Origin: Halarcobacter sp.
GTDB taxonomy: Bacteria; Campylobacterota; Campylobacteria; Campylobacterales; Arcobacteraceae
Assembly: GCA_050296315.1 (NCBI GenBank)
Contig: JBNKRE010000006.1
Span: 89,760 to 153,759 of the forward strand
DNA length: 64,000 nucleotides
Reading direction: 5' to 3'
The notes beneath the pieces are model-generated. The model saw only the letters and a program-made list of their open reading frames with translations, was not told where the DNA came from and did not search any database. Both the position numbers and the translations under genes were made by a program. Within the stretch, counting starts at the first letter, position 1. The number at the start of each line of letters is the position of its first letter. Of the stretch, positions 461 through 15,888 are shown piece after piece.

Positions 461-3280
461 CTATGCTTTATAAATTTTTACAGCACATTTTTTAAAGTCT
501 GTTTGTTTTGACATAGGACAAGTCGCATCTAAACAAACTTTGTTGATGAAAACACTTTCATCGAACCATGGAACAAATACTAAACCTTTTGATGGTCTAT
601 TTCTTCCTCTAGTTTCAATTCTAGCTTTTACTTTTCCTCTTCTACTCTCTACCCAAGCTAATTCACCCTGTTTTACACCATATTTTTTAGCATCTTCTGG
701 GTGGATATAACATAATGCTTCTGGAACTGCTCTATATAATTCTGGAACTCTCATTGTCATAGTTCCACTATGCCAGTGTTCTAAAACTCTTCCTGTACAC
801 AACCAAACCGGATATTCAGTATCTGGCATTTCTGGTGGATCCATATATGGTCTTGCAAAGATTTTTGCTTTGTTTTTTAATGCTTTTTTAGTTTTATCTT
901 TTACTCCATTTAAGTCACCACTTGGCAATGCTTTTGCTAATGTTCCATAGAAAGCATGAGTATTATTTGTCCCTGCTTCTTTTACAGCTTTAGCTGCATA
1001 TGGGTCATATTTAACATTAAATCTCCATTGAGTTTCTTTACCGTCAACAACAGGCCATTTAAGTCCTCTAACTTTGTGATATACATCAAATGGAGCTAAG
1101 TCATGACCATGCCCTCTTGTAAATGCCGCATACTCTTCAAATAGATATTTTTGGATAAAGAAACCATAACCTTCAAAAACTTTTCCGTCACTTCCAACTA
1201 CATTTCTGCTATCACCCATAGCCTCAGAGTTATCATATCCAGCTTGAATAGGATCTTCAGGGTCAAGTTTATAAGATTTTGCAACATCATTAGCAAAAAG
1301 AATATCAAATAGAGTAGTATCTTCTTTATATCCCATAGCTTTTGCTTTTTCAATTACACTAGGAAGAGCCTCTTTTCTAGGTCCAGATGGAGCATATTCT
1401 CCCCAAACATCTTTTACTGTAAATCTTTTTGATAATTCAACCCATTGCCAAGTATCTGACATAGACTCACCTACAGGTAAAACTTGTTGTCTCCAGTGTT
1501 GAGTTCTTCTTTCTGCATTTCCATAAGCTCCCCATTTTTCATAAATCATCGCTGATGGTAAAATAAGGTCTGAAACTTTTGCTGAAATTCCTGGGTAACC
1601 ATCAGATGTAACAATAAAGTTATCCATTTCACGTGCAGCTTTAATCCAATGTGTAGCACTTGCAGAATCTTGGTAAGGGTTACATACATTTACCCACGCA
1701 AATTTAACAAGTCCATCTTCTATTCCTCTGTGGATTGCCATAATATGTTGTTTACCGACACCATTTAAAGTTCCTTGTGGAACCATCCATTTTTTCTCTG
1801 CAATACTTCTGTGTTTTGGATTTGCTACCATCATATCAGCAGGTAGTCTGTGTGTAAAAGTACCAACTTCTCTTGCAGTACCACATGCACTTGGTTGTCC
1901 TGTTAAAGAAAAGGCACCAGAACCAGGAAGTGCTTGTTTGTTTAATAAAAAGTGAACATTGTATGATAAAGTGTTTACCCATGTTCCTCTTGTATGTTGG
2001 TTCATACCCATTGTCCAGAAAGATACTATTTTTCTTCCTTTTTCAATATATAAAGAAGCTAATGTTTTAAGCTTTTTCTTAAACTCTTCAATATTTTCAT
2101 CAGGATTACCTTTAGAGATTTTAGCAACATAATCAAGAGTATATGGTTCTAAAGATTTTTTATAATCTTCAAATGAAATTTCCCAGTGTTTTAATGTTCC
2201 AGCTGTATGTTTCATTACATCCCCAGCTTTATATCCATAAGGAGCTAATGCAGGAGCTTCATTTTCAGAAACAATAGTTGTCATCTCTTTTGAGATTATC
2301 TCCATCTCTTTATCTGTGTATTTACCAGATTTTAAAGATTTTTCACCATCTCTTCTTAATCCATAACCAATATTAACTGGACCTGCTGCAAATATCATAT
2401 TTTTCTTAACAAAATCCCAATCAATTGCTTCTGGATGATTAAATACTATTTCATGAGCAATATAGTTCCAAATAGCTAAGTCTGTATTTGGAGTAAAAAT
2501 AATCTCAATATCAGCCAAATCAGAAGTTCTATGTCTATATGTAGACATATTGATTACTTTTACTCTATCAGGAGCAGATAGTTTTCTATCAGTTACTCTT
2601 GACCACAAAATAGGGTGCATCTCAGCCATATTTGAACCCCATGTAACAACAGTATCTGTAATCTCAATATCATCATAACACCCACTTGGTTCATCTACAC
2701 CAAATGTTTGATAAAACCCTACAACTGCCGATGCCATACAGTGTCTTGCATTTGGATCAATTGCATTTGATCTAAATCCAGCTTTCATCAATTTTTGTGC
2801 AGCATATCCTTCCATAATAGTATATTGTCCAGAAGCAAAGATACCAACACCTTCAGGTCCACTTGCCTTTAAAGCTTTTTTGATATGAATCTCCATCTCA
2901 TCAAAAGCTCTTTTCCAAGAAACCGGGGCAAATTTTCCATTTTTGTCAAATTCACCTTTTGAATTAACTCTTAATAAAGGTTGTTTCAATCTATCCGCAC
3001 CATACATGATTTTAGCGTTAAAATAACCTTTAATACAGTTAAGTCCTCTATTTACTGGTGCAGCTGGGTCACCTTTTACAGCAACTATTCTTCCATTTTT
3101 AGTTGCTAACATGATACCACAACCTGTACCACAGAACCTACAAGCTGCTTTATCCCATCTCCATCCACTTTCTGCTTGTTCAGCATTTGCTTTTAGCTGT
3201 GCAGGTACACCCATTCCAACTGCTGCTGCTGCACTTGCAGCTGCTGAACTTTTAAGAAAGTCTCTTCTTGAAAGTGACAT
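461..3280 (-). CDS. napA: Periplasmic nitrate reductase catalytic subunit
   Basis: Tat signal [15 protein letters not shown] [4Fe-4S] motif, NARHCMASA Mo-ligand region, [13 protein letters not shown]; 939 aa. Confidence 0.98.
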
Positions 3281-3342: not shown

Positions 3343-3356
3343 TTGACTTAGGTCAA
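3343..3356 (-). promoter_or_regulatory. Nss/FNR-type box upstream of napA
   Basis: TTGACTTAGGTCAA; minus-strand extended -10 (TGT)TAGACT at 3315-3320, 22 nt away. Confidence 0.8.
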
Positions 3357-3490: not shown

Positions 3491-5860
3491 ATGTTAAAGA
3501 AACTATCTATAAAGCAAAAACTAGTTTTAATTATGATGATACCGCTAACTGTTGTTATATTTTTATCAGCAAAACTGGCCTATGACTCATATATAAAAAA
3601 TATAAACTTAGATAGGATTCAGAAAATTGTTATTTTATCTACTAAAATAAGTGCCTTAGTTCATGAAACACAAAAAGAAAGAGGTATGACAGCTGGTTTT
3701 CTTGGTAGTAAAGGGGTAAAGTTTTCTGATGCACTTCCAAAACAAAGAGAAAATACAAATCAGAAAAAAGAGGCTTTGTTATCTTTTTTAGAAAGTTTTA
3801 ATATAAAAGATTATGATGAAGAGTTTCAATTAGTAATTAACAATGCCCTAGAGCAGTTAAAAGAAATAAATAGTATCAGAGATAAAGTCTCTTCTCAAAA
3901 CATAGTTACATCTGATGCAATAGCTTATTATACAAAAATGAATGGACTTTTTATAAATGCTATTGGGGCTTCAATACATTTATCTCAAAGTGCAAGTTTA
4001 TCTCAAAAACTTACAGCATATACAAACTTTTTATTATCAAAAGAGAGAGCAGGAATTGAAAGAGCAGTTGGCTCTAATACTTTTGCTAGAGATAATTTTG
4101 CAGAAGGGATGAAGTTAAAGTTTATAGACCTTGTTTCAAAACAAGATGGTTATATTGATTCTTTTATGAAAGTTGCAACACATGAAGCAAAAGTTTTTTT
4201 CAAAGATACCTTAAAGGGTGAAGGAGTTGATGAAGTAAATAGAATGAGAAAACTCCTTTTTACAAAAGATTCTGATTTTGGTATAGACTCAAAATATTGG
4301 TTTGACACAATTACCAAAAAAATCAATTTATTAAAAAAGGTTGAAGATTATTTAGCTGATGAAATATTAAAATCAGCAAATGAAGAACAAAGTAAAACTT
4401 TTATAGAAACGTTGATTTTTGCAATTATGACCACTATAGGTATAGCACTTACTTTAATATTGGCAAGAACAATTGCTTTTACTATCTTAATTGATGTTAA
4501 TGATGTAAAAAAAGGTTTAGATGATTTCTTTGCCTTTATAAATTTTGAAAAAGATGATTTATCATTGATAAATATAGAATCAGAAGATGAATTTGGACAA
4601 ATGTCACGTATAATAAATAAAAATATTGAAAATACAAAGGTAAATATCCAAACAGATAAAGATTTAATCAAAGAAACAATTCAAGTTGCAGATAAGATTA
4701 GTAAAGGACATTTAAGTTCTAGAATACAAAAACATTCAAACAATCCGCAATTGAATGAATTAAAAAATATTATTAATGAGATGTTAAATACTATGCAAGG
4801 GAATATTGAAAGAATAATTGATGTATTAACAGCTTATTCAAAACTAGATTATAGACAAAAAGTTGAGAAAGGAAACCTTGAAGGTACTTTATCAAAACTA
4901 TGTGATGATGTAAATATACTTAGAGATGCTATCACTAAAACTTTAATTAATAACAAAAAAAATGGTATGATTTTAAGTCAAAACTCTCGGACACTTACTA
5001 TGAATTTAAGTGAGTTATCAAATGCTGCAAATACACAAGCAGCTTCATTGGAAGAAACTGCTGCTTCACTTGAAGAGATAACATCAACACTAAAAATAAA
5101 TACTGAATCAACTTCTCAAATGGCAAAATATGGTGAAAGAGTTAAAGATTCTGTAAAAATTGGACATGATTTAGCTAATGAAACAGTAAAATCTATGGAA
5201 GAGATTAATAAACAAACTACAGCAATAACAGAAGCGATCACAGTAATTGACCAAATTGCTTTTCAAACAAATATTTTATCTTTAAATGCTGCTGTTGAAG
5301 CTGCAACTGCTGGTGAAGCAGGAAAAGGTTTTGCAGTTGTTGCACAAGAGGTTAGAAACTTAGCAAGTAGATCAGCCGAAGCTGCAAAAGAGATAAAATC
5401 TATTGTAGAAAATGCTCAATTAAAAACAAATGATGGGAAAATAATAGCATCAAATATGATTAAAGGTTATGATGAATTAAATGACAATATTACTAAAACC
5501 CTTCAATTTATTGATGATGTGGCAAATTCAAGTAGAGAACAAGAAAGAGGTATTCTTCAAATAAATGATGCAGTTAATCAATTAGATGAACTTACTCAAA
5601 GAAATGCTCAAAATACTGTAAATGCTGATGCAATCGCTAAAAAGACAGAGGTTATTTCAAATATTATTGTGGATGATGCAAATTCAAAAGAGTTTGATGG
5701 TAAAGATAGTATTGATATGAGAGATAAAGCAGTTAATGAGAATTTTACAGGAGTAGAAAGAAGAAGTGTGGAAAGAGAGATAAAACAAAATAAAGAAGTG
5801 TATACAAAAGTTAAAAAGACTCCTAAAAAAACTGAAGCAGATGAATGGGATAGTTTTTAA
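3491..5860 (+). CDS. Methyl-accepting chemotaxis protein with NIT (nitrate/nitrite-sensing) domain
   Basis: Two TM segments, periplasmic HETQKERG and KERAGIERA NIT-type motifs, MCP hairpin IAFQTNILSLNAAVEAATAGEAGKGFAVVA, C-terminal EWDSF. Confidence 0.9.
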   Translation: MLKKLSIKQKLVLIMMIPLTVVIFLSAKLAYDSYIKNINLDRIQKIVILSTKISALVHETQKERGMTAGFLGSKGVKFSDALPKQRENTNQKKEALLSFLESFNIKDYDEEFQLVINNALEQLKEINSIRDKVSSQNIVTSDAIAYYTKMNGLFINAIGASIHLSQSASLSQKLTAYTNFLLSKERAGIERAVGSNTFARDNFAEGMKLKFIDLVSKQDGYIDSFMKVATHEAKVFFKDTLKGEGVDEVNRMRKLLFTKDSDFGIDSKYWFDTITKKINLLKKVEDYLADEILKSANEEQSKTFIETLIFAIMTTIGIALTLILARTIAFTILIDVNDVKKGLDDFFAFINFEKDDLSLINIESEDEFGQMSRIINKNIENTKVNIQTDKDLIKETIQVADKISKGHLSSRIQKHSNNPQLNELKNIINEMLNTMQGNIERIIDVLTAYSKLDYRQKVEKGNLEGTLSKLCDDVNILRDAITKTLINNKKNGMILSQNSRTLTMNLSELSNAANTQAASLEETAASLEEITSTLKINTESTSQMAKYGERVKDSVKIGHDLANETVKSMEEINKQTTAITEAITVIDQIAFQTNILSLNAAVEAATAGEAGKGFAVVAQEVRNLASRSAEAAKEIKSIVENAQLKTNDGKIIASNMIKGYDELNDNITKTLQFIDDVANSSREQERGILQINDAVNQLDELTQRNAQNTVNADAIAKKTEVISNIIVDDANSKEFDGKDSIDMRDKAVNENFTGVERRSVEREIKQNKEVYTKVKKTPKKTEADEWDSF

Positions 5861-5870
5861 AAAAGATAAA

Positions 5871-5905
5871 AATATGGTTTAAAATTTAAATTTTTAAACC
5901 ATATT
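5871..5905. terminator. Bidirectional hairpin between convergent MCP and nnrS
   Basis: AATATGGTTTAAAA / TTTTAAACCATATT 14-bp inverted repeat. Confidence 0.6.
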
Positions 5906-7073
5906 AATTTTTTATTCTAAGTAAAGTTCTTGTATATCTAAAACTCCAAATTAAAAATAACACTATCCATAACATTGAACTTAGATGTAAAAATCCCATA
6001 AAAATATTTGAATCACTTAAAAATAAAAAAGAAGCAGTTATTCTAGATATAACAACTATTTGTGTTAATACAAATATAAATATTGTTAGTTTATCAGCTA
6101 CAATTTTTTGTGCAGGTATTGCATGACCCATTACAACTCTACTTCCAAAACCTATTAGTAAAGTTGTTATAAACCCCAAAGCAAAAATATGAAGGGCAAG
6201 TTTTAGAGAATAAAGATTAAAAATAGATTCTATAAATAAAACTATAAAACCAATTTCAAACCATATAAATGATAAGACAAGAATAGATATTATTGCAGGA
6301 GTTTTTTTATAAATATTTAATTTAAAAACAATATATCCAAAAAATATCATTGCAAAAAAAGTAACTATTTTAACTATTTGAAGTTCAAACTCTAAAGATA
6401 AACCTAAAATAAAAAAAATAGTTATAGAGATTTCTCTTATATATCTTGGTTTTTCCCATTGAGCTATTTGCATATATGCACTATAAAATGCAGGAACCAT
6501 TCTTAAAGCTACTAAAAATACTAAGCAGATTAGATAAGCAAAAAATATCAATAAAGATAAATTTGTTTGAAAAATCACTTCTAAAAGTAAAAATATAGCT
6601 CCAAACAAAAACACAAGATTTATAAAGATGCTATCTTTTTTATTTGGAATTTTCCCTTTTTTTATTATTTCATAAAAAGTTTTTACAAAATAAAGCATTG
6701 TAAAAGAGACTATAATTTTTCCTAAAATAGAAAAACCAATTAAAGATAAAATTACTCCAATTTGATAAGTAAACCAAGGGATAAGATAGCTGTTTTTACT
6801 TATAACTTCTGATGCATTGTATTTTGGTATTACAGTTATCAAAAATCCTAAAAAAGCATTTGTTAAAACTGCATAGTTTAAACCAAAACCATGAATCAAA
6901 GAGAATTCTAAAGGTATTTTTCCTAAAAATGAGATAAAAGTTAAAACCATTATTGTAATAGCAAAAAATATCGCACTTGTAAAATAAAGCTGATGGGCTT
7001 GAGAGCTAAATCTATCCCACCATTTTTCTTCAATAGGAACAAAAAAGTTGTTTGGATTTGTAGAGAAATTCAT
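5904..7073 (-). CDS. nnrS: NnrS family membrane protein (NO/nitrosative stress)
   Basis: Polytopic hydrophobic protein; HGFG..Y...LGFLITVIPKY, RMVPAF, LHIFALGF...GSRVVMGH patterns; context. Confidence 0.8.
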   Translation of the reverse strand: MNFSTNPNNFFVPIEEKWWDRFSSQAHQLYFTSAIFFAITIMVLTFISFLGKIPLEFSLIHGFGLNYAVLTNAFLGFLITVIPKYNASEVISKNSYLIPWFTYQIGVILSLIGFSILGKIIVSFTMLYFVKTFYEIIKKGKIPNKKDSIFINLVFLFGAIFLLLEVIFQTNLSLLIFFAYLICLVFLVALRMVPAFYSAYMQIAQWEKPRYIREISITIFFILGLSLEFELQIVKIVTFFAMIFFGYIVFKLNIYKKTPAIISILVLSFIWFEIGFIVLFIESIFNLYSLKLALHIFALGFITTLLIGFGSRVVMGHAIPAQKIVADKLTIFIFVLTQIVVISRITASFLFLSDSNIFMGFLHLSSMLWIVLFLIWSFRYTRTLLRIKN

Positions 7074-7115
7074 AATTTTTCCTTAAATAATATATTAAAA
7101 GCAATATAGCTATTT

Positions 7116-7130
7116 TAATAATCACTATCA
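7116..7130. promoter_or_regulatory. Fur/PerR-like 7-1-7 box in nnrS promoter
   Basis: TAATAAT-C-ACTATCA, 2 mismatches to TGATAATnATTATCA; abuts the Nss box. Confidence 0.4.
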
Positions 7131-7144
7131 TTGATATAAGTCAA
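7131..7144 (-). promoter_or_regulatory. Nss/FNR-type box upstream of nnrS
   Basis: TTGATATAAGTCAA; -10 TATATT at 7103-7108 (minus), 22 nt away. Confidence 0.8.
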
Positions 7145-7158
7145 TAAATTTAAAAATA

Positions 7159-7737
7159 TTAATCCTCTTTGGAGTCTTTTTTTGGATTGAGTATGAATTT
7201 ATTAAATTTTATTCCATCAGGGTAGTGTCTATGTTTTGAAATATTATTTACAACTAAAGCAATTACTAATAATATCACAGCACCAGTAGTGACAGGATAT
7301 AAAACATAGATAAAACCTAAATTATGAATATCATCACTTCCTAAAACTGCTATTAATGCAGTTGCTCCTCCTGGAGGATGTAAGGTTAATGTTAGTTGCA
7401 TTACAAAAATAGAAGTTGCAACTGCAAAAGCAGAACAAAAAAGTAAATTTCCAAAAAAAAGTTTATATGAAACAACACCAATTATAGCAGATAGTATATG
7501 TCCACCAAGAAGATTTCTAGGTTGTGCCAAAGGGGAATGAATAGCTCCATAAACTAAAACAGCACTTGCTCCAAATGAACCTATAACTAATCCTAAGTCT
7601 TCATCTCCTAAAATACCTCTATGAAAAAGTGTTATAAATAATATTCCAAGAAAAGAACCTATCCAAGACCAGATAATATTTGATCTTTCAAGAGGTTCAG
7701 TATTTATTTTTTTAAATTGTTTAAAAAATTTTTTCAT
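7159..7737 (-). CDS. HPP family membrane protein (possible nitrite transporter)
   Basis: SFGASAVL, SPLAQPRNLLGGH and LHPPGGATAL motifs; ATG at 7737 preferred, in-frame TTG at 7758 is an alternative. Confidence 0.9.
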   Translation of the reverse strand: MKKFFKQFKKINTEPLERSNIIWSWIGSFLGILFITLFHRGILGDEDLGLVIGSFGASAVLVYGAIHSPLAQPRNLLGGHILSAIIGVVSYKLFFGNLLFCSAFAVATSIFVMQLTLTLHPPGGATALIAVLGSDDIHNLGFIYVLYPVTTGAVILLVIALVVNNISKHRHYPDGIKFNKFILNPKKDSKED

Positions 7738-7756
7738 ATGCCTCTTTTTTATATTC

Positions 7757-7783
7757 AAAAAAAGCCCTCAAAAAAGAGGGCTT
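7757..7783 (-). terminator. Intrinsic terminator inside the HPP 5' leader
   Basis: Minus strand AAGCCCTC-TTTTTT-GAGGGCTT followed by TTTTT. Confidence 0.7.
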
Positions 7784-7892
7784 AATGATTTAATTTTAAT
7801 TAATTTTTATATTGTTAAATCTAAAAGATCACCATATATTGATTCTACTTTATGTAGTTTTTTTAGTATATATAAAAATAAAAAGAAAAAAT

Positions 7893-7906
7893 TAGACTTA
7901 GGTCAA
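7893..7906 (-). promoter_or_regulatory. Nss/FNR-type box (1 mismatch) upstream of HPP leader
   Basis: TAGACTTAGGTCAA; -10 TATACT at 7865-7870 (minus), 22 nt away. Confidence 0.7.
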
Positions 7907-7927
7907 GAAATAGAGTTTTATAGCTAT

Positions 7928-7941
7928 TTGATTTGAATCAA
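7928..7941 (+). promoter_or_regulatory. Perfect FNR-consensus box upstream of Cys-rich microprotein
   Basis: TTGATTTGAATCAA; TATAAT at 7964-7969, 22 nt away. Confidence 0.85.
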
Positions 7942-7994
7942 TATAAAAGTAGTAATTTTTAAGTATAATCAATTTATAAACTTAGGGGTAGATT

Positions 7995-8183
7995 ATGTTT
8001 TTTAATCTTTTTAAAAAAAAGAAGTATATTAAGATGAAACTTCCAAAATATGTATGTAAACATTGTAAATATACTTGCAAAAATTGTGATATGCTTTTTT
8101 GTTATTCTTGTCATATGAATGAAGCTAACCCTTGTCCTAAATGTGGAAAAAGAAATATTGACTATCAAAAAAATGATTCTTAG
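7995..8183 (+). CDS. 62-aa Cys-rich putative metal-binding microprotein (4 CxxC)
   Basis: CKHC-x3-CKNC-x4-CYSC-x7-CPKC; AGGGG RBS; dedicated promoter. Confidence 0.75.
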   Translation: MFFNLFKKKKYIKMKLPKYVCKHCKYTCKNCDMLFCYSCHMNEANPCPKCGKRNIDYQKNDS

Positions 8184-8881
8184 TAATCAAAATTTCTATA
8201 CTTGATTTTAAAACTATACTTATTGTCAAATTCTCTAAAAAACTCTTTAGTTATAGAATTTTTAGGAATATTTGATAAAGTAGGAACAGAATTTAAACAT
8301 TTTTGAATATAGTAAGTTTTCGTGTATTTATATTTTTGTAAAACTTCTAAAATCTCATTTATATCATTTTTTGAAAAAAGTGAATTATGGTATGTAGTTC
8401 TTACTTCAAAATCCAAATTTGAATCTATTAATAGTTTTAAACTCTCAACAACTTTTTCATACTCTTTGTTTTTTGTAATTTTAAAAAAGTTTGTTTTAGA
8501 GGTTTTAAAATCCAATGCAATAAAATCTAATAAATTGTTTTTTATAAGCTTTTCTAAAACTTGTGGTTTGAGACCATTTGTATCAAGTTTTATTTTAAAA
8601 TCCATTGATTTTATATATTTACAAATATCATATATCTCTTTATTTAAAGTTGGCTCTCCACCTGATAAAACTACACCTTTTAGAAGATTTTCTCTTTGTT
8701 TCAAAAAAGGGATTAGTTGTTCAAAACTATATTTGCCTTTTTTTAAAACAATATCAGGATTATGGCAATAATCACACCTCATATTACAACCGTTAAACCA
8801 GATAATACAAGATGGATATTGCTCAAAATCCAGAAGAGTAAAAGGGGCTAAACTATCAATTATCTTTTTTTTGCTCCACAA
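8180..8881 (-). CDS. nrdG: Anaerobic ribonucleotide reductase activating radical-SAM enzyme
   Basis: GCNMRCDYCHN CxxxCxxC, GVVLSGGEPT, KLDTNG; downstream of nrdD; TTG start uncertain. Confidence 0.92.
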   Translation of the reverse strand: MWSKKKIIDSLAPFTLLDFEQYPSCIIWFNGCNMRCDYCHNPDIVLKKGKYSFEQLIPFLKQRENLLKGVVLSGGEPTLNKEIYDICKYIKSMDFKIKLDTNGLKPQVLEKLIKNNLLDFIALDFKTSKTNFFKITKNKEYEKVVESLKLLIDSNLDFEVRTTYHNSLFSKNDINEILEVLQKYKYTKTYYIQKCLNSVPTLSNIPKNSITKEFFREFDNKYSFKIKYRNFDY

Positions 8882-8996
8882 AATATACCCTTTGTTTATG
8901 TTCAGCTTTTTTTCCTATATTAAAACTCTCAACTGGTCTATGATAACCCATAACTCTAGTATAAACAATACATTTTGTTCTCTTTTTTTCTTCCAT
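8856..8996 (-). CDS. 46-aa stand-alone NrdD C-terminal glycyl-radical domain
   Basis: MEEKKRTKCIVYTRVMGYHRPVESFNIGKKAEHKQRVYF...; RVxGY glycyl-radical motif; own RBS (TAAGGAG, 6 nt before ATG) overlapping the nrdD stop. Confidence 0.88.
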   Translation of the reverse strand: MEEKKRTKCIVYTRVMGYHRPVESFNIGKKAEHKQRVYFVEQKKDN

Positions 8997-9006
8997 CTTA
9001 TTCTCC

Positions 9007-11103
9007 TTAGGCAGATTTTGTATTGTGTTGAATCTCTTCATCACATTTTGGGCAATATTCATGCTCCCCATTTAAATAACCATGAACTGGACAAATTGAA
9101 AATAAAGGTGTCAAAGTTATATATGGTAATTTAAAATTTTCAAGAACTGTTTTTAAAAATAGTTTTGTAGATTCTGTTGAACTTAGTTTTTCACTCATAT
9201 ATAGATGCAGTACCGTTCCACCTGTATATTTAGTTTGTAAAATATCTTGTTTTTGTAAGGCTTCAAATGGATCATCTGTAAAATCAACTGGTAGTTGAGA
9301 AGAGTTTGTATAGTAGATTTCATTATCAAATCCAGCTTGAAGAATATCTGGATATCTTTTTTTATCCTCTTTTGCAAATCTATATGTCGTACCTTCTGCT
9401 GGTGTTGCTTCAAGGTTATACAAATTTCCACTTTTTTCTTGAAAAGATGTGATTTTTTCTCTTATGAAATCTAAAATTTCAGAAGAGAACTCTATGCCAT
9501 AATCACTTGTAATATCTTCTTGGTCATTGGTAAAATTTCTTATCATCTCATTTATACCATTTACACCAATAGTTGAGAAGTGGTTATTAAAACTTTTTAA
9601 ATATCGTTTTGTATATGGATATAAGCCTTGTTCAAATAGTTTGTTTATAATAACTCTTTTTTTCTCCAAGGTATTAAATGAAAGCTCTAAAAGTTTATTT
9701 AATTCATCATATAGTTTTTGTTTATTGTTTTTATATAAGTATCCAAGTCGTGCCATATTTATAGTAACCACTCCAATACTTCCTGTCATCTCAGCACTTC
9801 CAAATAAACCATTTCCTCTTTTTAACAATTCTCTTAAATCTAGTTGTAATCTACAACACATACTTCGTACAGCTCCTGGCTTATATGCATTTGGATTTTC
9901 TACTTTTTCTCCTTGTTCATTTGTCATATATTGACTTCCTACAAAGTTTTGAAAATAGCTTGAACCAATTTTTGCACTATTTTCTAAAAGAATATCTACA
10001 TTTTCTCCATCCCAATCAAAATCTTCAGTTATATTTACTGTGGGAATAGGGAAGGTAAAGGGTTGTCCATTTTTGTCCCCGTGGGTCATAATCTCATAAA
10101 AGGCTTTGTTTATTAGATTCATCTCTTTTTGAAAATGTTTAAAAGTCAATTCAGTTAATTTATTTACCCCTTTGTCTTTTAGTTTTTCTTTTATGTTTTC
10201 ATTCTCTTCAAATTGTTCAAATAGATGTTTATCGTTGTATGTTGGAAACTGCTCTTTTAAATCTGATGGTACATTCCAATCAAGTGTGATATTTGTAAAT
10301 GGACTTTGTCCCCATCTTGATGGAACATTTAGATTATAAATAAAACTAGTAAGTGCTTTTTTAACCTCTTTATATGATAAATCATCCATAAAAACATAAG
10401 GTGCCAAATAGGTATCAAAAGAGCTAAAAGCTTGTGCTCCAGCCCATTCGCTTTGTAAAATACCTAAAAAATTTGCCATTTGACTAAGAGCTTGTCTAAA
10501 ATGTTTTGCAGCTTTGCTTTCTACTCTTCCTCTTACTCCGTTAAACCCTTCATTTAATAATTGTCTTAAACTCCAACCTGCACAATATCCAGTAAGACAA
10601 TCTAAATCATGAATATGGATATCTCCATTTCTATGGGCAACTCCTTCTTTAACATCATAAACTTTATCAAGCCAATAGTTTGCGATAACTTTTCCTGCAA
10701 GATTGTTTACAAGTCCAGAGTTTGAGTAACCAGTGTTTGCATTTGCATTTATTCTCCAGTCATTTTTATTTATATACTCTTCTACACTTTTAGTTGAATC
10801 AACAAAAGTTGTATCTTGGTTGAGTCCTAGTATATGTTCCCTTTGCATCTTATGCAAAAATCTATATGTAATAAATGATTTCATTACACTAAAATATCTA
10901 TACTCAAACAATGATTTTTCAATATAATCTTGAATATCTTCCACATTATGATTTTTATTTTCATGTAAGTTTTGTATTACTGAAACAAAGATTATTTTAT
11001 TGTAAGTAATCTCTACACTTCTAAATGCTTTTTTTATAGCATCCTCTATTTTATAAGCTTTAAATGGTTCTTTTGAACCATCTCTTTTTATTACAAAATC
11101 CAT
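9007..11103 (-). CDS. nrdD: Class III (anaerobic) ribonucleoside-triphosphate reductase, lacking the C-terminal glycyl-radical loop
   Basis: N-terminal ATP cone (VIKRDG), IHIHDLD, GYCAGWS, SMCCRL finger loop, YNLEATPAEG, C-terminal CPVHGY..YCPKC; no RxxGY. Confidence 0.95.
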   Translation of the reverse strand: MDFVIKRDGSKEPFKAYKIEDAIKKAFRSVEITYNKIIFVSVIQNLHENKNHNVEDIQDYIEKSLFEYRYFSVMKSFITYRFLHKMQREHILGLNQDTTFVDSTKSVEEYINKNDWRINANANTGYSNSGLVNNLAGKVIANYWLDKVYDVKEGVAHRNGDIHIHDLDCLTGYCAGWSLRQLLNEGFNGVRGRVESKAAKHFRQALSQMANFLGILQSEWAGAQAFSSFDTYLAPYVFMDDLSYKEVKKALTSFIYNLNVPSRWGQSPFTNITLDWNVPSDLKEQFPTYNDKHLFEQFEENENIKEKLKDKGVNKLTELTFKHFQKEMNLINKAFYEIMTHGDKNGQPFTFPIPTVNITEDFDWDGENVDILLENSAKIGSSYFQNFVGSQYMTNEQGEKVENPNAYKPGAVRSMCCRLQLDLRELLKRGNGLFGSAEMTGSIGVVTINMARLGYLYKNNKQKLYDELNKLLELSFNTLEKKRVIINKLFEQGLYPYTKRYLKSFNNHFSTIGVNGINEMIRNFTNDQEDITSDYGIEFSSEILDFIREKITSFQEKSGNLYNLEATPAEGTTYRFAKEDKKRYPDILQAGFDNEIYYTNSSQLPVDFTDDPFEALQKQDILQTKYTGGTVLHLYMSEKLSSTESTKLFLKTVLENFKLPYITLTPLFSICPVHGYLNGEHEYCPKCDEEIQHNTKSA

Positions 11104-11160
11104 AAATAGAACCTTTTAAATCTGTTTTGACAATTGTATTAAAGATTTTTTTTTAAAGGT

Positions 11161-11174
11161 ATGACTAGGGTCAA
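11161..11174 (-). promoter_or_regulatory. Nss/FNR-type box (1 mismatch) upstream of nrdD
   Basis: ATGACTAGGGTCAA; -10 TACAAT at 11133-11138 (minus), 22 nt away. Confidence 0.75.
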
Positions 11175-11202
11175 AATTGATTGTAAATATAAAAATTTAT
11201 AC

Positions 11203-11216
11203 TTGATGTATGTCAA
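11203..11216 (+). promoter_or_regulatory. Nss/FNR-type box upstream of moaA
   Basis: TTGATGTATGTCAA; TAAAAT at 11239-11244, 22 nt away. Confidence 0.8.
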
Positions 11217-11261
11217 GACAAAAATTTTTAGTTTGTAATAAAATTTCATTAGGAGATTAAG

Positions 11262-12242
11262 ATGTTAATAGATAATTACAATAGAAAAATAGATTATTTA
11301 AGGGTCTCAGTAACTCAAAGATGTAATTTTAGATGTCAATATTGTATGCCAGAAAAACCTTTTGAGTGGATACCAAAAGAGGATTTACTTTCATATGAGC
11401 ACATGTTCAAATTTATAAAAGTAGCTATATCAAATGGAATAAAGAAGATTAGAATCACAGGTGGAGAACCATTAGTCAGAGATGATTTAGATAAATTTAT
11501 ATCTATGATAAATGAATATGACCCAACAATAGATTTAGGTCTTACTACAAATGGATATCTACTAAAAACACAAGCAAAAAAATTAAAAGAAGCAGGCTTA
11601 AAAAGAATCAATATCTCTTTAGATTCTTTAGAAAGAGAAACTTTTTGGTACTTAACCAAAAAAGATGTTTTGTCAAAAGTTTTAGAAGGGATAGATGAAG
11701 CTATAAAGGTGGGTATCAAAGTTAAAATAAATAGCGTAGTTTTAAAAAAGATAAATGAAAATGAGATCTTATCTTTATATGAGTTTGCAAAACAAAGAGA
11801 TATTCAAATTAGATTTATAGAGTATATGGAAAATGAGATGGCTTATAATCAGTTAAAAACTCTAACAAGTCAAGAGATTTTAAATATCATCTCTACAAAA
11901 TATAGTTTTGAAACAGTTCAAAACTGTGTAAATTCTGCTGCAAAACTTTATGAAGATAATCAAGGTTATGTTTTTGGAATAATTGAGCCATATGATGATT
12001 CTTTTTGTTCAACATGTAATAGAATTAGATTATCAGCAGAAGGGGATTTAATTCCATGTTTATATTATGAAGATTCTATTAATATAAAAGAATCAATCTT
12101 AAGTAAAAAAGATTTGGAAAATGTTTTGTATAAAGTAGTTCAAAATAGACCTGAAAAAAACAAATGGACTAAAAACAATCTACAATTAGAATCTTCAAAA
12201 GAAAATATCTCTTCAAGAGCTTTTTATTATACAGGTGGATGA
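11262..12242 (+). CDS. moaA: GTP 3',8-cyclase (molybdenum cofactor biosynthesis)
   Basis: YLRVSVTQRCNFRCQYC, RITGGEP, CSTCNRIRL...PCL, C-terminal GG. Confidence 0.96.
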   Translation: MLIDNYNRKIDYLRVSVTQRCNFRCQYCMPEKPFEWIPKEDLLSYEHMFKFIKVAISNGIKKIRITGGEPLVRDDLDKFISMINEYDPTIDLGLTTNGYLLKTQAKKLKEAGLKRINISLDSLERETFWYLTKKDVLSKVLEGIDEAIKVGIKVKINSVVLKKINENEILSLYEFAKQRDIQIRFIEYMENEMAYNQLKTLTSQEILNIISTKYSFETVQNCVNSAAKLYEDNQGYVFGIIEPYDDSFCSTCNRIRLSAEGDLIPCLYYEDSINIKESILSKKDLENVLYKVVQNRPEKNKWTKNNLQLESSKENISSRAFYYTGG

Positions 12243-12249
12243 TAAGTCA

Positions 12250-12263
12250 TTGACCTGTATCAA
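12250..12263 (+). promoter_or_regulatory. Nss/FNR-type box upstream of hcp
   Basis: TTGACCTGTATCAA; TACCAT at 12286-12291, 22 nt away. Confidence 0.8.
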
Positions 12264-12323
12264 TGTTTCAAGTATTTGATTTTTATACCATTACACCTTA
12301 ATTTTATTTTTAAGGATTTTTAA

Positions 12324-13649
12324 ATGAGTATGTTTTGCTATCAATGTGAAATGAGTACACCAAATGGTTGTGGTTCTACAGGAGCTAGTGTTGGAACTTG
12401 TGGTAAAGATGAAAATCTTGCAAGATTACAAGATACTATGATTTTTGGATTAAAAGGTTTAAGTGCGTATAGAGAACATTTAAATGAGATAAACCCAAGT
12501 GCTACAAAAAATGTAGATGATGTTATGAGTGAAACCTTATATTTCACACTTACAAATGTAAACTTTAATTTTGATGATCATATAAAACAACTTATGAAAG
12601 TTGGAAGTGCAGGTGTTGAGGTGATGGATAAACTTTCAAATGCACATACAGGAAAGTTTGGTATTCCAACACCTGTAAAAGTTAGTCAAAATAAGGTTGA
12701 AGGAAAAGCTATTCTTGTAAGTGGACACAATTTAGAGATGTTAGAAAAACTTTTAATAGCAACAGAAAATAAAGGGATAAATATCTATACTCACTCAGAG
12801 ATGTTACCAGCTCATGGGTATCCAGAATTGAAAAAATATTCTCATTTAAAAGGAAATATTGGAAAAGCATGGTTTGACCAAGCTGAATTGATGAAAAGAT
12901 TTAAAGGTACTTTTGTAGTAAATACAAACTGTATTGTGCCACCAAAGAAAAATGCAACTTATGTTGATAGAGTTTTTACGTATAAGATTGTTGGAATTGA
13001 AGGTGGTACACAAATAGTTGACGATAACTTTGATGAACTAATTGAAAAAACTTTACAATGTGAAGATACAAACTTTGATGATAATCTGTTTTTAACTACA
13101 GGACACCACTATAAAACAATATTAACATTAGCTCCTCAAATTTTAGAAGCAATTAAAGAGGGAAAAATTAGACAGTTTTTTGTAATAGCAGGTTGTGATG
13201 CACCAGGGAAAGCTGGAAACTATTATAGACAGATAGCTGAAAACTTACCAGAAGATTGTGTTATTATCACTTCAAGTTGTGGAAAATTTAGATTCAATGA
13301 TATTGACTTTGGTGAGATTGAAGGAACGGGTATTCCTAGATATTTAGACCTTGGACAATGTAATGATAGTAACGGTGCTGTTGAAATAGCAAAAGCAGTG
13401 AGTGAAGCTTTAAATACACCAATCAACGATTTACCAATATCAATAGTTCTTTCTTGGATGGAACAAAAAGCTGTAATTATCTTATTGGCACTATTTAGTT
13501 TGGGTGTAAAAAATATCTATCTTGGACCTAAGCCACCACAGTTTGTAAATGAAGATATATTTAATTTTTTAGCTCAGAATTTTAATTTACATCTAACAGG
13601 AGATGCTTTAGAGGATTTAAAAAATTTATTACTTCCAAAAGTAGCATAA
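12324..13649 (+). CDS. hcp: Hybrid cluster protein (hydroxylamine/NO reductase), short form
   Basis: MFCYQC, ILVSGHNL, YTHSEMLPAH, NCIVPP, GCD, SCGK, GQCNDS, LSWMEQKA. Confidence 0.95.
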   Translation: MSMFCYQCEMSTPNGCGSTGASVGTCGKDENLARLQDTMIFGLKGLSAYREHLNEINPSATKNVDDVMSETLYFTLTNVNFNFDDHIKQLMKVGSAGVEVMDKLSNAHTGKFGIPTPVKVSQNKVEGKAILVSGHNLEMLEKLLIATENKGINIYTHSEMLPAHGYPELKKYSHLKGNIGKAWFDQAELMKRFKGTFVVNTNCIVPPKKNATYVDRVFTYKIVGIEGGTQIVDDNFDELIEKTLQCEDTNFDDNLFLTTGHHYKTILTLAPQILEAIKEGKIRQFFVIAGCDAPGKAGNYYRQIAENLPEDCVIITSSCGKFRFNDIDFGEIEGTGIPRYLDLGQCNDSNGAVEIAKAVSEALNTPINDLPISIVLSWMEQKAVIILLALFSLGVKNIYLGPKPPQFVNEDIFNFLAQNFNLHLTGDALEDLKNLLLPKVA

Positions 13650-13675
13650 ATAAAAGGGTTGATTCCCTTTTATTT
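13648..13675. terminator. Bidirectional terminator between hcp and cytochrome c
   Basis: AAATAAAAGGG-TTGATT-CCCTTTTATTT. Confidence 0.7.
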
Positions 13676-13957
13676 ACCAATTTTTTGTGCGATTGCTTCA
13701 ATATCAGCATCAGATAAAGCTGCTACTTGACCTTTCATCAAACCTTTCATAACTCCACCATATGAACCATCTTTATAACCTTTCATAGCACTTACAATTT
13801 CAGCTTTAGTCATATCTTTGATGATTTTAGATTTCCCCATCGCTGCTTTTTCACCAGTTGCACCGTGACATGCAACACATCTAGCATACACATCTGCTGA
13901 TGCATTAACTGCCAATAATCCTAATAATATAACTGATGTAGTTAAAATTTTTTTCAT
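13670..13957 (-). CDS. Monoheme cytochrome c (c553-like)
   Basis: Signal peptide ending ASA, CVACH heme motif, distal Met (GVMKGLM). Confidence 0.92.
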   Translation of the reverse strand: MKKILTTSVILLGLLAVNASADVYARCVACHGATGEKAAMGKSKIIKDMTKAEIVSAMKGYKDGSYGGVMKGLMKGQVAALSDADIEAIAQKIGK

Positions 13958-14008: not shown

Positions 14009-14022
14009 TTGATTTAAGTCAA
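14009..14022 (-). promoter_or_regulatory. Nss/FNR-type box upstream of cytochrome c
   Basis: TTGATTTAAGTCAA; -10 TAAACT at 13981-13986 (minus), 22 nt away. Confidence 0.78.
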
Positions 14023-14032
14023 ATTTATTTAA

Positions 14033-14046
14033 TTGATTTAAATCAA
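14033..14046 (+). promoter_or_regulatory. Perfect FNR-consensus box upstream of Crp/Fnr gene (autoregulation)
   Basis: TTGATTTAAATCAA; TATAAT at 14069-14074, 22 nt away. Confidence 0.85.
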
Positions 14047-14109
14047 TTAAATAATGAAGCAATTTGAGTATAATTTTTAAAATAACTTTAAAAGTAAGTA
14101 AAGATAAGT

Positions 14110-14772
14110 ATGAATAATATCAAAGATATAATAAAATCGATACCACTATTTACAGCTTTGCCAGATGATGAAATTGATTTGTTGTCTACAATGTCTCACG
14201 TATCAAAGTACAATGCAAACACAGTACTTTTTTATGAGTCAGAAACAACAGATGAATTACTTTTTTTGGTTGAAGGCTTACTAAAAGTATATAAAATAGA
14301 TAAGTATGATAATGAGATATTTTTATATTATGTCTACCCAAACTCTATGATATCAGAATTATCAAATCTAAATGACAATAAAATCAACTGTTTTTCAAAT
14401 AGTGAGTTTTTAAGAGATAGTGTGATGCTTTGTGTGAATTTTAAAAAATTTAAAGAAGAGTTCTTAAGTCAAAATGATTTGGTACAAAAGTTTATCAATG
14501 AACTTATTTATAAAAATCAACAACTTCAATGTATTGTAAATAGAGAATTGGTTTTTGATGCAACTTCAAAAGTTGCTTTTATGCTTACAAATGATTTGGA
14601 TATGTTTAATCACCTAAAAAGAAATGAAGTATCATTGTTGCTACATATACAGCCAGAAACTTTATCAAGGGTATTAAAAAGATTGGTTAGAAATGGTACA
14701 ATATCGATTGATAAAGGGATTGTATCTATTGAAAATGGTGATGAATTAAAAAGTATCTATTTAGGATTATAA
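14110..14772 (+). CDS. Crp/Fnr family regulator, NssR/DNR-like (no FNR Cys cluster)
   Basis: cNMP-type sensing domain, HTH with ETLSR recognition helix; 220 aa. Confidence 0.92.
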   Translation: MNNIKDIIKSIPLFTALPDDEIDLLSTMSHVSKYNANTVLFYESETTDELLFLVEGLLKVYKIDKYDNEIFLYYVYPNSMISELSNLNDNKINCFSNSEFLRDSVMLCVNFKKFKEEFLSQNDLVQKFINELIYKNQQLQCIVNRELVFDATSKVAFMLTNDLDMFNHLKRNEVSLLLHIQPETLSRVLKRLVRNGTISIDKGIVSIENGDELKSIYLGL

Positions 14773-14773
14773 G

Positions 14774-15763
14774 ATGAAAAAAGAGATTAGTGTTAGTGGG
14801 AAAATAAAGATTTTAGGGGCATTACTAATATCTACAGTATTTTTTGTAATTTGTGTATCTTTATATTTAAATTTAAAAAATTCAAAAGATGCAACTATTA
14901 TAAATATTGCTGGTAAACAAAGGATGCTTACACAAAAAATTACTAAAAATATCTTTTATTTATACCAAACAAAATCAAATAATTTTACACAAATTGATAA
15001 TGCAATAGAAGAGTTTAATTATGGATTAACAACTCTAAAAGATGGAAATGAGTTATTAAATATATCTGCTGCTCCAACAGATATAATAAGTAATCAAATA
15101 TCAAAAGTTATAGTTTTATGGAATACTTTTGAAAAAAATACAAAAGAGTTTAAAGAAGCTATTTTAAAAGATGATATTCAAAAACAAAACTCTATATTAA
15201 AATATATGTATGAAACAAATACTATACTTTTAGAAGAAGTTGATAAAGTTGTAAGTTTATATACAAGATATATTGAAGAAAAAACTGCATTTATAAAAAA
15301 CTTCCAATATACTTCCTTTGCATTAATGTTTATGTTGACAATTTATTCTTTGGTGCAATTAAAACAAATTGAGTCTCATGCAAAAGAGTTTATGTCAAAA
15401 TATAATCAATTAAATTCGGGTGAGATAACTAATTTAGAACCTATACACGTAGAGAGTGAAAAAGAGTTTGTAGAGATGGCAAACAATATGAATAATTTTA
15501 TAAATAAAGTAAATTCTGCTATGAATTATTCAGAATCAGCTCTTGAACAATCAAAATTAGCATCAGAAAAATTGTTAGATTTAACAGATGAGTTTGAAAA
15601 TATTATTGATGAGTTAGGAAATAAATCAGAAATAGTAAAAGAGATAAATAGAAGTGAAGATATCGCTATCGAGTCATCAGAAAATCTACTTAAGACTACT
15701 AAAAAACTAAATGATTTAAAAACACAACTAGATTTACTATTAAAAAACTGTCAAAATAAATAA
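14774..15763 (+). CDS. Membrane protein with NarX/PilJ-type nitrate-sensing domain, no kinase or MCP output domain
   Basis: TM1, P-box-like INIAGKQRMLTQKI, TM2, then about 130 aa helical tail without H-box or MCP hairpin. Confidence 0.8.
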   Translation: MKKEISVSGKIKILGALLISTVFFVICVSLYLNLKNSKDATIINIAGKQRMLTQKITKNIFYLYQTKSNNFTQIDNAIEEFNYGLTTLKDGNELLNISAAPTDIISNQISKVIVLWNTFEKNTKEFKEAILKDDIQKQNSILKYMYETNTILLEEVDKVVSLYTRYIEEKTAFIKNFQYTSFALMFMLTIYSLVQLKQIESHAKEFMSKYNQLNSGEITNLEPIHVESEKEFVEMANNMNNFINKVNSAMNYSESALEQSKLASEKLLDLTDEFENIIDELGNKSEIVKEINRSEDIAIESSENLLKTTKKLNDLKTQLDLLLKNCQNK

Positions 15764-15840
15764 GCCAAGAAGGAAGATAAAAAAAATATTAGTTTAGGAA
15801 TTGTTTTTTAATTATAGGAGGAGAACCTTCTTGGTTATTT
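15752..15840 (-). ncRNA. Candidate Nss-controlled small RNA with anti-Shine-Dalgarno loop
   Basis: Box 15875-15888 plus TAAAAT 15847-15852; CCAAGAAGG/CCTTCTTGG closing stem; loop contains UUCUCCUCCU; boundaries inferred. Confidence 0.35.
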
Positions 15841-15874: not shown

Positions 15875-15888
15875 TTGACTAAAATCAA
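15875..15888. promoter_or_regulatory. Nss/FNR-type box in a convergent intergenic region
   Basis: TTGACTAAAATCAA; -10-like hexamers 22 nt away on both sides (TAAAAT minus, TATATT plus). Confidence 0.65.

Follow-up and report, generated by a model that had tools for sequence, protein, structure and literature searches.

A Crp/Fnr regulator gene and the gene for an output-less PilJ/NarX-like receptor form a conserved pair in Campylobacterota and a candidate nitrate-responsive module

How is nitrate perceived when the receptor encoded next to a regulator has no recognizable output domain? This question is raised by a locus in a 64,000-nucleotide (nt) stretch of Halarcobacter sp. DNA (GCA_050296315.1, contig JBNKRE010000006.1, positions 89,760 to 153,759, forward strand; hereafter the window, in which all coordinates are given), where a Crp/Fnr-type regulator gene is directly followed by the gene for a transmembrane receptor with a nitrate-site motif. 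We refer to the Crp/Fnr gene product as R and to the receptor encoded behind it as S. Wolinella, Sulfurospirillum, Arcobacter, Sulfurimonas and enterohepatic Helicobacter, which belong to the Campylobacterota, respire nitrate and nitrous oxide (N2O), and to our knowledge this phylum is without NarXL and NarQP. In the passages of two publications that concern the genetics of W. succinogenes, three Crp/Fnr regulators are assigned to separate signals: NssA to nitrate, NssB to nitric oxide (NO) and NssC to N2O and the cNos route (PMC8139620, PMC12285233). A 2021 review stated that further study is needed on how the Nss regulators sense these signals (PMC8139620), and PMC12285233 gives only their signals and targets. 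We found R and S to be a real and conserved signaling module that has apparently not been described before; its parts are known and its wiring is new. At a probability of roughly 0.6, we favor a two-gene, translationally coupled and autoregulated module in which S acts on R by contact and which replaces a NarX/NarL-type two-component system.

With about 24-36% GC, the window is AT-rich, and its closest named homologues point to a Halarcobacter-like member of the Arcobacteraceae. R (14110-14772, + strand; 220 residues) ends with the stop codon TAA at 14770-14772, which is followed by a single g and then by the ATG of S at 14774 (14774-15763, + strand; 329 residues), with AGGA located 9 nt ahead of this ATG; the 1-nt gap reported in a preliminary description of this DNA was thus reproduced. 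R was found to have the N-terminal cNMP-binding-like β-barrel and the C-terminal Crp-type helix-turn-helix of the Crp/Fnr proteins. It matched cNMP_binding (PF00027) with an E-value of 2.7e-9 (37.3 bits, cut-off 27.5) and HTH_Crp_2 (PF13545) with 26.8 bits, which is borderline below the cut-off of 27, and CRP structures matched it with an E-value of 3e-7. The N-terminal cysteine cluster of FNR proper, which holds the oxygen-sensing [4Fe-4S] center, is absent from R, whose sole cysteines are residues 94, 108 and 141. We describe R as an Nss-like regulator without this cluster, where "Nss-like" denotes a likeness of type and does not imply orthology to NssA. The recognition helix QPETLSR, of the E--SR type, was 93-100% conserved across 121 paired homologues; E--SR recognition helices of FNR and Dnr read TTGAT half-sites. 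The neighbor of S is therefore not a NarL/NarP-type response regulator, being a Crp/Fnr protein without a receiver domain.

S carries PilJ (PF13675; E-value 5.4e-18, residues 32-134) as its sole Pfam domain and has no NCBIfam name. The Pfam profiles HisKA, HisKA_3 and HATPase_c gave no match in S, which stops at residue 329, and MCPsignal (MCP, methyl-accepting chemotaxis protein) stayed below threshold with 11.7 bits against a cut-off of 34.6 (E-value 0.23), with no MCP hairpin tip. An AlphaFold model of S was built from 61 homologues and showed a mean predicted local distance difference test score (pLDDT) of 79.8. The model comprised a first transmembrane helix (TM1) at residues 7-36 (14792-14881, all S features being on the + strand; hydrophobic core about residues 10-33), periplasmic bundle helices at residues 39-66, 72-90, 103-131 and 135 onward, and an unbroken helix of residues 135-215 that crosses the membrane as TM2 and is followed by a 14-residue connector. 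The periplasmic four-helix bundle, which is PilJ/NarX-like by PF13675 and by its fold match to McpN (6gcv), spans residues 37-176 (14882-15301), and TM2 (residues 177-198; 15302-15367) runs without a break from the last sensor helix into the first helix of the HAMP-like segment. The cytoplasmic part of about 131 residues (199-329) consists of a HAMP-like segment (residues 199-250; 15368-15523), in which a helix, the connector and a helix with E-x-x-E-x-A-x-x-x-N-x-F follow one another, and a conserved helical tail (residues 251-329; 15524-15760), which we propose as the output or regulator-contact surface. The two tail helices in the model, residues 230-280 and 287-328, are separated by a low-confidence break. 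The preliminary description had given S two transmembrane helices, a cytoplasmic part of about 130 helical residues, and neither an H-box nor an ATPase nor an MCP hairpin, and the model and the Pfam profiles agreed with it on each of these points.

As evident from comparison with the PDB, the S model was most similar to the sensor-TM-HAMP structure of NarQ (5iji; TM-score of 0.75 over 251 columns) and to the ligand-binding domain of McpN (6gcv; TM-score of 0.79 and root mean square deviation (rmsd) of 2.1 Å), and NarQ 6xyn likewise matched the fold. The match to 5iji, and not Pfam, is the basis on which the first approximately 50 cytoplasmic residues may tentatively be called HAMP-like. By sequence profile, S was near to PilJ (E-value 2e-13) and McpN (5e-10), while NarQ reached only 0.048. 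The segment INIAGKQRMLTQKI (residues 43-56), previously likened to the P-box of NarX and NarQ, proved to contain an exact N-box: its first 12 residues, INIAGKQRMLTQ (residues 43-54; 14900-14935), fit the McpN pattern [IVL]-[ND]-x-A-G-x-Q-R-M-L-[ST]-Q, which Martín-Mora et al. defined around the nitrate site of that protein (PMC6381276). Arg50 of S is equivalent to McpN Arg61, which is hydrogen-bonded twice to nitrate at the dimer axis, and NarX uses the same site; NarX and NarQ also bind nitrite there, and McpN is nitrate-specific (PMC6381276). The N-box was the most conserved stretch of S, with a column conservation of 0.94. The label "NarX-type" is loose, since the nearest output-bearing relatives of S are PilJ-type chemoreceptors and not kinases. 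S is the only PilJ/NarX-like domain in its own genome, which therefore has no NarX or NarQ.

The short length of S is a native feature. Among the 120 listed of 485 homologues from a search over 5.8 billion proteins, all were 325-335 residues long with PF13675 alone, a fragment and a fusion being the two exceptions. Among 1.8 billion cluster representatives, the matches that reached the S C-terminus were all 300-345 or 425-465 residues long, and the longer proteins, which had only the sensor in common with S, were MCPs with two or three PilJ modules. S-like genes, nearly all with intact frames, were present in 119 of 151 Arcobacteraceae genomes and in 102 of 401 Campylobacterota genomes, and the homologues span at least seven families. 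A truncated copy or pseudogene is ruled out by this conserved length and architecture. Kinase-bearing homologues are not the norm, as the full-length relatives of about 300-345 or 425-471 residues have no output domain, and the kinase-less state claimed from the single sequence is thus genuine.

Column conservation in the S tail was 0.58-0.71, with means of 0.65-0.71, compared with 0.66 in the sensor. Within the tail, conservation peaked in all subtypes at SEDIAIESSENLL (residues 294-306; 15653-15691); the motif SEDIAIxSxEEL is common to every subtype, and E295, I299 and L312 are invariant in all three. Because the tail is conserved like the sensor and has a motif common to all subtypes, we consider from these alignments that it is under selection. 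A PDB profile search with the tail returned only insignificant helical-bundle matches (FlgN, with an E-value of 0.0065, and syntaxin). Since the longer proteins that share the sensor are multi-PilJ MCPs, the most likely ancestor of S is a PilJ-type chemoreceptor whose signaling hairpin was lost. The relatives outside the phylum, Scalindua proteins of 637-788 residues, were set aside as ordinary double- or triple-PilJ MCPs with no adjoining Crp gene. Three subtypes were distinguished. T1, to which the window S belongs, has about 300-346 residues (mostly around 330) and one N-box; T2 has about 425-471 residues and two PilJ modules with an N-box-like motif in each; and T3 has about 304-330 residues and an N-box degenerated to I-N-x-Q-K-A-F-T-Q, without the arginine.

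The preliminary description had proposed a survey of gene neighborhoods, and we located the R and S homologues in 60 loci from one genome set and 80 loci from named contigs. The pairing was found to be near-invariant in the phylum: of about 132 informative Campylobacterota loci, 128 have an R homologue as the gene just ahead of S in the same orientation, with a gap of -47 to +26 nt (mostly -8 to +18) and an ATGA overlap in many of them. The non-paired loci were contig ends or had an S gene that was interrupted. Among the named carriers are Halarcobacter, Poseidonibacter, Aliarcobacter butzleri, Sulfurimonas, Sulfuricurvum, Sulfurospirillum, metagenome-assembled genomes (MAGs) of Wolinella, and enterohepatic Helicobacter. 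R and S also co-diverge. In a tree of 121 regulators, the grouping followed the subtype of the adjacent S: 6 label changes were needed, whereas shuffled labels required 41 on average. The T3 regulators grouped as a single clade with 99% support. The regulators of genomes with two modules were placed by subtype and not by genome, so we conclude from the tree that the module duplicated and diverged as a unit. A close R orthologue was present in 67 genomes of the phylum, 65 of which have S. Taken as comparative evidence, these data argue strongly for a functional coupling of R and S. In three loci of one genus (L007-L009, e.g. L007:406-1431), a 341-residue protein with weak likeness to R (E-values of about 1e-15 to 1e-17) is encoded directly downstream of S on the same strand.

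The subtype of S tracks the neighboring operon. At 49 T1 and T2 loci, napA follows S in the same orientation at a distance of 60-2400 nt, and in the window's genus 5 loci have napA and R arranged divergently. For the N-box-less T3, the gene for the cytochrome-c nitrous oxide reductase (cNosZ) lies 38-126 nt downstream of S, followed by nosD, in seven of eight loci. Of 151 Arcobacteraceae genomes, 116 encode both S and NapA, 3 have S but not NapA (fragments or T3), 15 have NapA but not S and 17 have neither protein, which gives a Fisher p of 4e-11 with kinship among genomes ignored. The N-box-less T3 receptor may provide the input to the N2O/cNos route that has been assigned to NssC, and by analogy the nap-linked N-box modules and the nos-linked N-box-less modules would mirror the roles of NssA and NssC. 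The nos-linked T3 loci (L042-L044, L047-L049 and L061; e.g. L043:4346-8688) come from two families and each have their own Crp/Fnr gene. In genomes related to that of the window, R-S directly abuts napA.

An occurrence in Wolinella, which had been suggested beforehand, was confirmed by R-S pairs in two Wolinella MAGs (L100 and L116). One of these MAGs (G528) holds three paralogues, and the best match to R among them is the S-paired one. In one pair-bearing Wolinella MAG, napA lies 975 nt downstream, and in one the pair is surrounded by housekeeping genes.

The regulon of boxes that had been ascribed to R is real. A search of the whole window for TTGATNNNNATCAA (TTGAY-N4-RTCAA) with at most one mismatch gave an unremarkable count of 16 against 10.4 expected, and the boxes became significant only in intergenic sequence and at the fixed -10 spacing. 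Within the intergenic sequence, which makes up 7.5% of the window, seven boxes were found against 0.8 expected; they all lie within 7.1-15.9 kb, and none of 500 shuffles reached seven. A TAnnnT element is located exactly 30 nt from the box center, on the gene side, at seven sites, namely those of napA, nnrS, an open reading frame (ORF) of 62 residues, moaA, hcp, a cytochrome c gene and R-S, and this fixed box-to--10 spacing is the geometry of class II, FNR-type activation. The R-S operon promoter has the perfect FNR/Dnr-type box TTGATTTAAATCAA (14033-14046, + strand; 0 mismatches), with the -10 hexamer TATAAT (14070-14075, + strand) 30 nt from its center. Because a box with class II geometry precedes R-S, we take the operon to be positively autoregulated and R and S to be co-expressed. 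On the - strand, TTGACTTAAATCAA (14009-14022) serves the divergent cytochrome c gene (13670-13957), with TAAACT at +30. Further boxes precede hcp (box 12250-12263, + strand; gene 12324-13649, hydroxylamine reductase/Hcp), moaA (box 11203-11216, + strand; gene 11262-12242), the Cys-rich 62-residue ORF (perfect box 7928-7941, + strand, with TATAAT at +30; ORF 7995-8183) and nnrS (box 7131-7144, - strand; gene 5904-7073, - strand). The symmetric variant box TTGACTTAGGTCAA (TTGAC...GTCAA; 3343-3356) lies between napA (461-3280, - strand) and a gene for a NIT-domain chemoreceptor (3491-5860, + strand), with a -10 element at +30 toward napA and at +29 toward the chemoreceptor gene.

The mechanism that we favor can be outlined as follows. 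S would be an inner-membrane dimer. Like McpN and NarQ, it would bind nitrate on the dimer axis, with the N-box (Arg50) of its periplasmic four-helix bundle as the site. The signal would then travel along TM2 and reach the conserved tail by way of the HAMP-like segment; the tail would have no enzymatic activity and would control R by direct protein contact, with no phosphoryl transfer. In the preferred version, S would hold R inactive at the membrane without nitrate and would release or activate it with nitrate; in the alternative version, R would be activated at the membrane. Free, active R would then bind the TTGAY-N4-RTCAA boxes, centered near -41.5, and activate nap, hcp, nnrS, moaA, the cytochrome c gene, the small Cys-rich ORF and its own operon. 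Nitrate binding by S, the contact between S and R and the sign of this control are what we infer, and sequestration and release are favored on three grounds, namely stoichiometric expression of R together with S, autoregulation of the operon, and R genes that have survived next to napA without S. Because its gene nearly always stands right behind this one type of Crp/Fnr gene, S is the best candidate for the nitrate-sensing route that switches on nitrate respiration in Campylobacterota.

A single natural R-S fusion was found, the 551-residue protein P0010 from an ENA metagenome contig, with the junction …SIYLGYK-MKKIG…. When the protein junction was read against the window DNA, the fusion could be explained by the loss of one T in GGATTATAAGATG. 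P0010 may be a real regulator tethered to the membrane in the manner of ToxR, or else it results from an assembly error. The alignment for modeling the fusion had 33 paired rows, with R and S in frame and the stop codon read as Gly.

Several observations weigh against the proposed control of R by S. P0010 is the only fusion found and may be an assembly error in one metagenome contig. Its AlphaFold model, a weak test that speaks neither for nor against the contact because it was a monomer from a shallow alignment with no contact read-out, had a predicted template modeling score (pTM) of 0.38 and no confident docking of R and S, and the pLDDT of the tail was 49-68 in the fusion compared with 44-65 for S alone, which is no gain. 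No HAMP match was obtained in S with Pfam even at an E-value of 1. Tight synteny and co-divergence are equally expected from simple co-inheritance. In two genomes (L147, G005:C20, and L148, G160:C19), R adjoins napA and no remnant of S is present, so R can exist without S; one of them has a 424-nt non-coding gap at the position expected for S. When these two S-less orthologues were compared with the 121 paired regulators, Arg194 was the sole conserved position that differed in both, which is not enough for an interpretation. A paralogue of R with 31% identity in the same genome could share the boxes, and the regulon, with hcp, nnrS and the nrdDG neighborhood, looks nitrosative or anaerobic as much as nitrate-specific.

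Some of these observations would fit an arrangement in which S is a genuine nitrate receptor that signals elsewhere, to chemoreceptor arrays or a histidine kinase, and stands behind R merely for expression control. The modeling predicted no R-S interface, two genomes have R but not S, and the nearest output-bearing relatives of S are PilJ-type MCPs, whose alignment to S enters the start of the MCP signaling domain; there is also the weak MCPsignal match noted above (E-value 0.23). However, S is without the MCP hairpin tip that binds CheA and CheW, and no third conserved gene goes with the pair. Three paralogous subtypes show the pairing, in 128 of about 132 loci, and their stop and start codons overlap. 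The R tree agrees with the S subtypes, and the subtype follows the operon expected under the adjacent regulator, nap or nos. We consider a target other than R to be unlikely.

Control of R by S could also serve a different cue, S sensing nitrite, another anion or a redox signal, or nitrate being one input while R itself senses NO or O2 in the manner of Dnr or NNR. The exact N-box was defined on the nitrate-specific McpN, the N-box subtypes go with napA, and S is almost never found without NapA, all of which speak for nitrate; the nitrite binding of NarX and NarQ at the same site (PMC6381276), the nitrosative-stress genes hcp and nnrS in the regulon, and the Dnr-type DNA-binding domains described for NssA and NssB in the literature point the other way. 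Overall, we regard these readings as rather improbable. That S is a degenerate remnant of a chemoreceptor or kinase without a signaling role, or a purely structural membrane protein, would account for the lack of a recognizable output domain but is scarcely credible in view of the reading frames, which are intact apart from a few fragments or copies with internal stops and occur in 119 of 151 family genomes and at least seven families, the conserved length, the near-invariant N-box and the conserved tail.

Compared with the proposed module, the E. coli sensors NarX and NarQ (5iji, 5jef, 6xyn) are similar to S in having two transmembrane helices, a periplasmic four-helix bundle whose P-box/N-box arginine lies at the dimer axis, and a helix that runs unbroken through TM2 into HAMP (in S, the HAMP-like segment), and they provide the best structural match of the S model (TM-score of 0.75). 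In contrast to them, S ends approximately 80 residues past the HAMP-like segment and has no signaling helix or GAF-like region, no histidine of the dimerization and phosphotransfer (DHp) domain and no ATPase; its partner is a Crp/Fnr protein without a receiver, and the sequence likeness to NarQ is marginal (E-value 0.048). McpN of Pseudomonas aeruginosa (PA2788, 6gcv) shares PF13675, the exact N-box and the ligand-binding fold (rmsd of 2.1 Å) with S, and double-PilJ MCPs, such as those of Scalindua, are the nearest output-bearing homologues. Unlike McpN and the MCPs, S has no signaling hairpin, its tail being only about 80 residues long, and is tied to transcription and not to CheA/CheW. The regulator resembles Nss of W. 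succinogenes and NssR of Campylobacter jejuni, which are likewise Cys-less Crp/Fnr proteins of Campylobacterota with a Dnr/FNR-type E--SR helix and accompany nap, hcp and nnrS genes. In the open-access papers found by our literature searches, no membrane partner or partner gene is mentioned; an earlier mention in Kern & Simon 2016 is possible.

By analogy, the proposed module may be likened to NasS-NasT, NreA-NreB, extracytoplasmic function (ECF) sigma/anti-sigma pairs and Mlc-PtsG, in which ligand-binding proteins act by binding to the transcription factor or kinase under their control, and the sigma/anti-sigma parallel would extend to co-transcription, translational coupling and positive autoregulation. 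Unlike R-S, none of these partner-switch systems has a NarX/PilJ-HAMP receptor or a Crp/Fnr target, and they share neither sequence nor fold with it. A wider, tentative and somewhat doubtful reading is that output-less PilJ-HAMP receptors form a new class of transmembrane signaling proteins, each contacting a dedicated Crp/Fnr (Nss) factor, and that the module has been redeployed with different ligand sites, with N-box members serving nitrate and nap and N-box-less members serving as N2O sensors. We know of no N2O sensor protein in any organism. The conserved partner gene gives the question of nitrate perception in Campylobacterota a concrete, testable answer. If the contact mechanism is true, it would link a one-component transcription factor to a periplasmic ligand in a new manner, and it would offer a candidate for N2O sensing, which is relevant to microbial N2O sinks.

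Other features of the window lie around the pair. The region 5904-13957, part of the 11 kb between nap and R-S, is a compact N-oxide/anaerobic island containing nnrS, a gene for an HPP-family membrane protein, nrdG, nrdD, moaA, the gene for a short (441-residue) hybrid-cluster protein and that for a monohaem cytochrome c. The product of 3491-5860 (+ strand), which is divergent from napAG, matched NIT (E-value 5e-59) and MCPsignal (E-value 9e-38) and is possibly a nitrate/nitrite chemoreceptor of the same regulon. The 62-residue ORF at 7995-8183 (+ strand), which is unlisted, has four CxxC pairs (zinc-ribbon or rubredoxin-like) and GGGGTAG ahead of it, and is probably a small regulon member that is easily overlooked in annotation. 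An orphan box, TTGACTAAAATCAA (15875-15888), lies between the convergent 3' ends of S and of an iron-type ABC binding-protein gene; it has TAnnnT at +30 on both strands and a terminator-like hairpin nearby at 15816-15831, and it could drive an antisense or small RNA.

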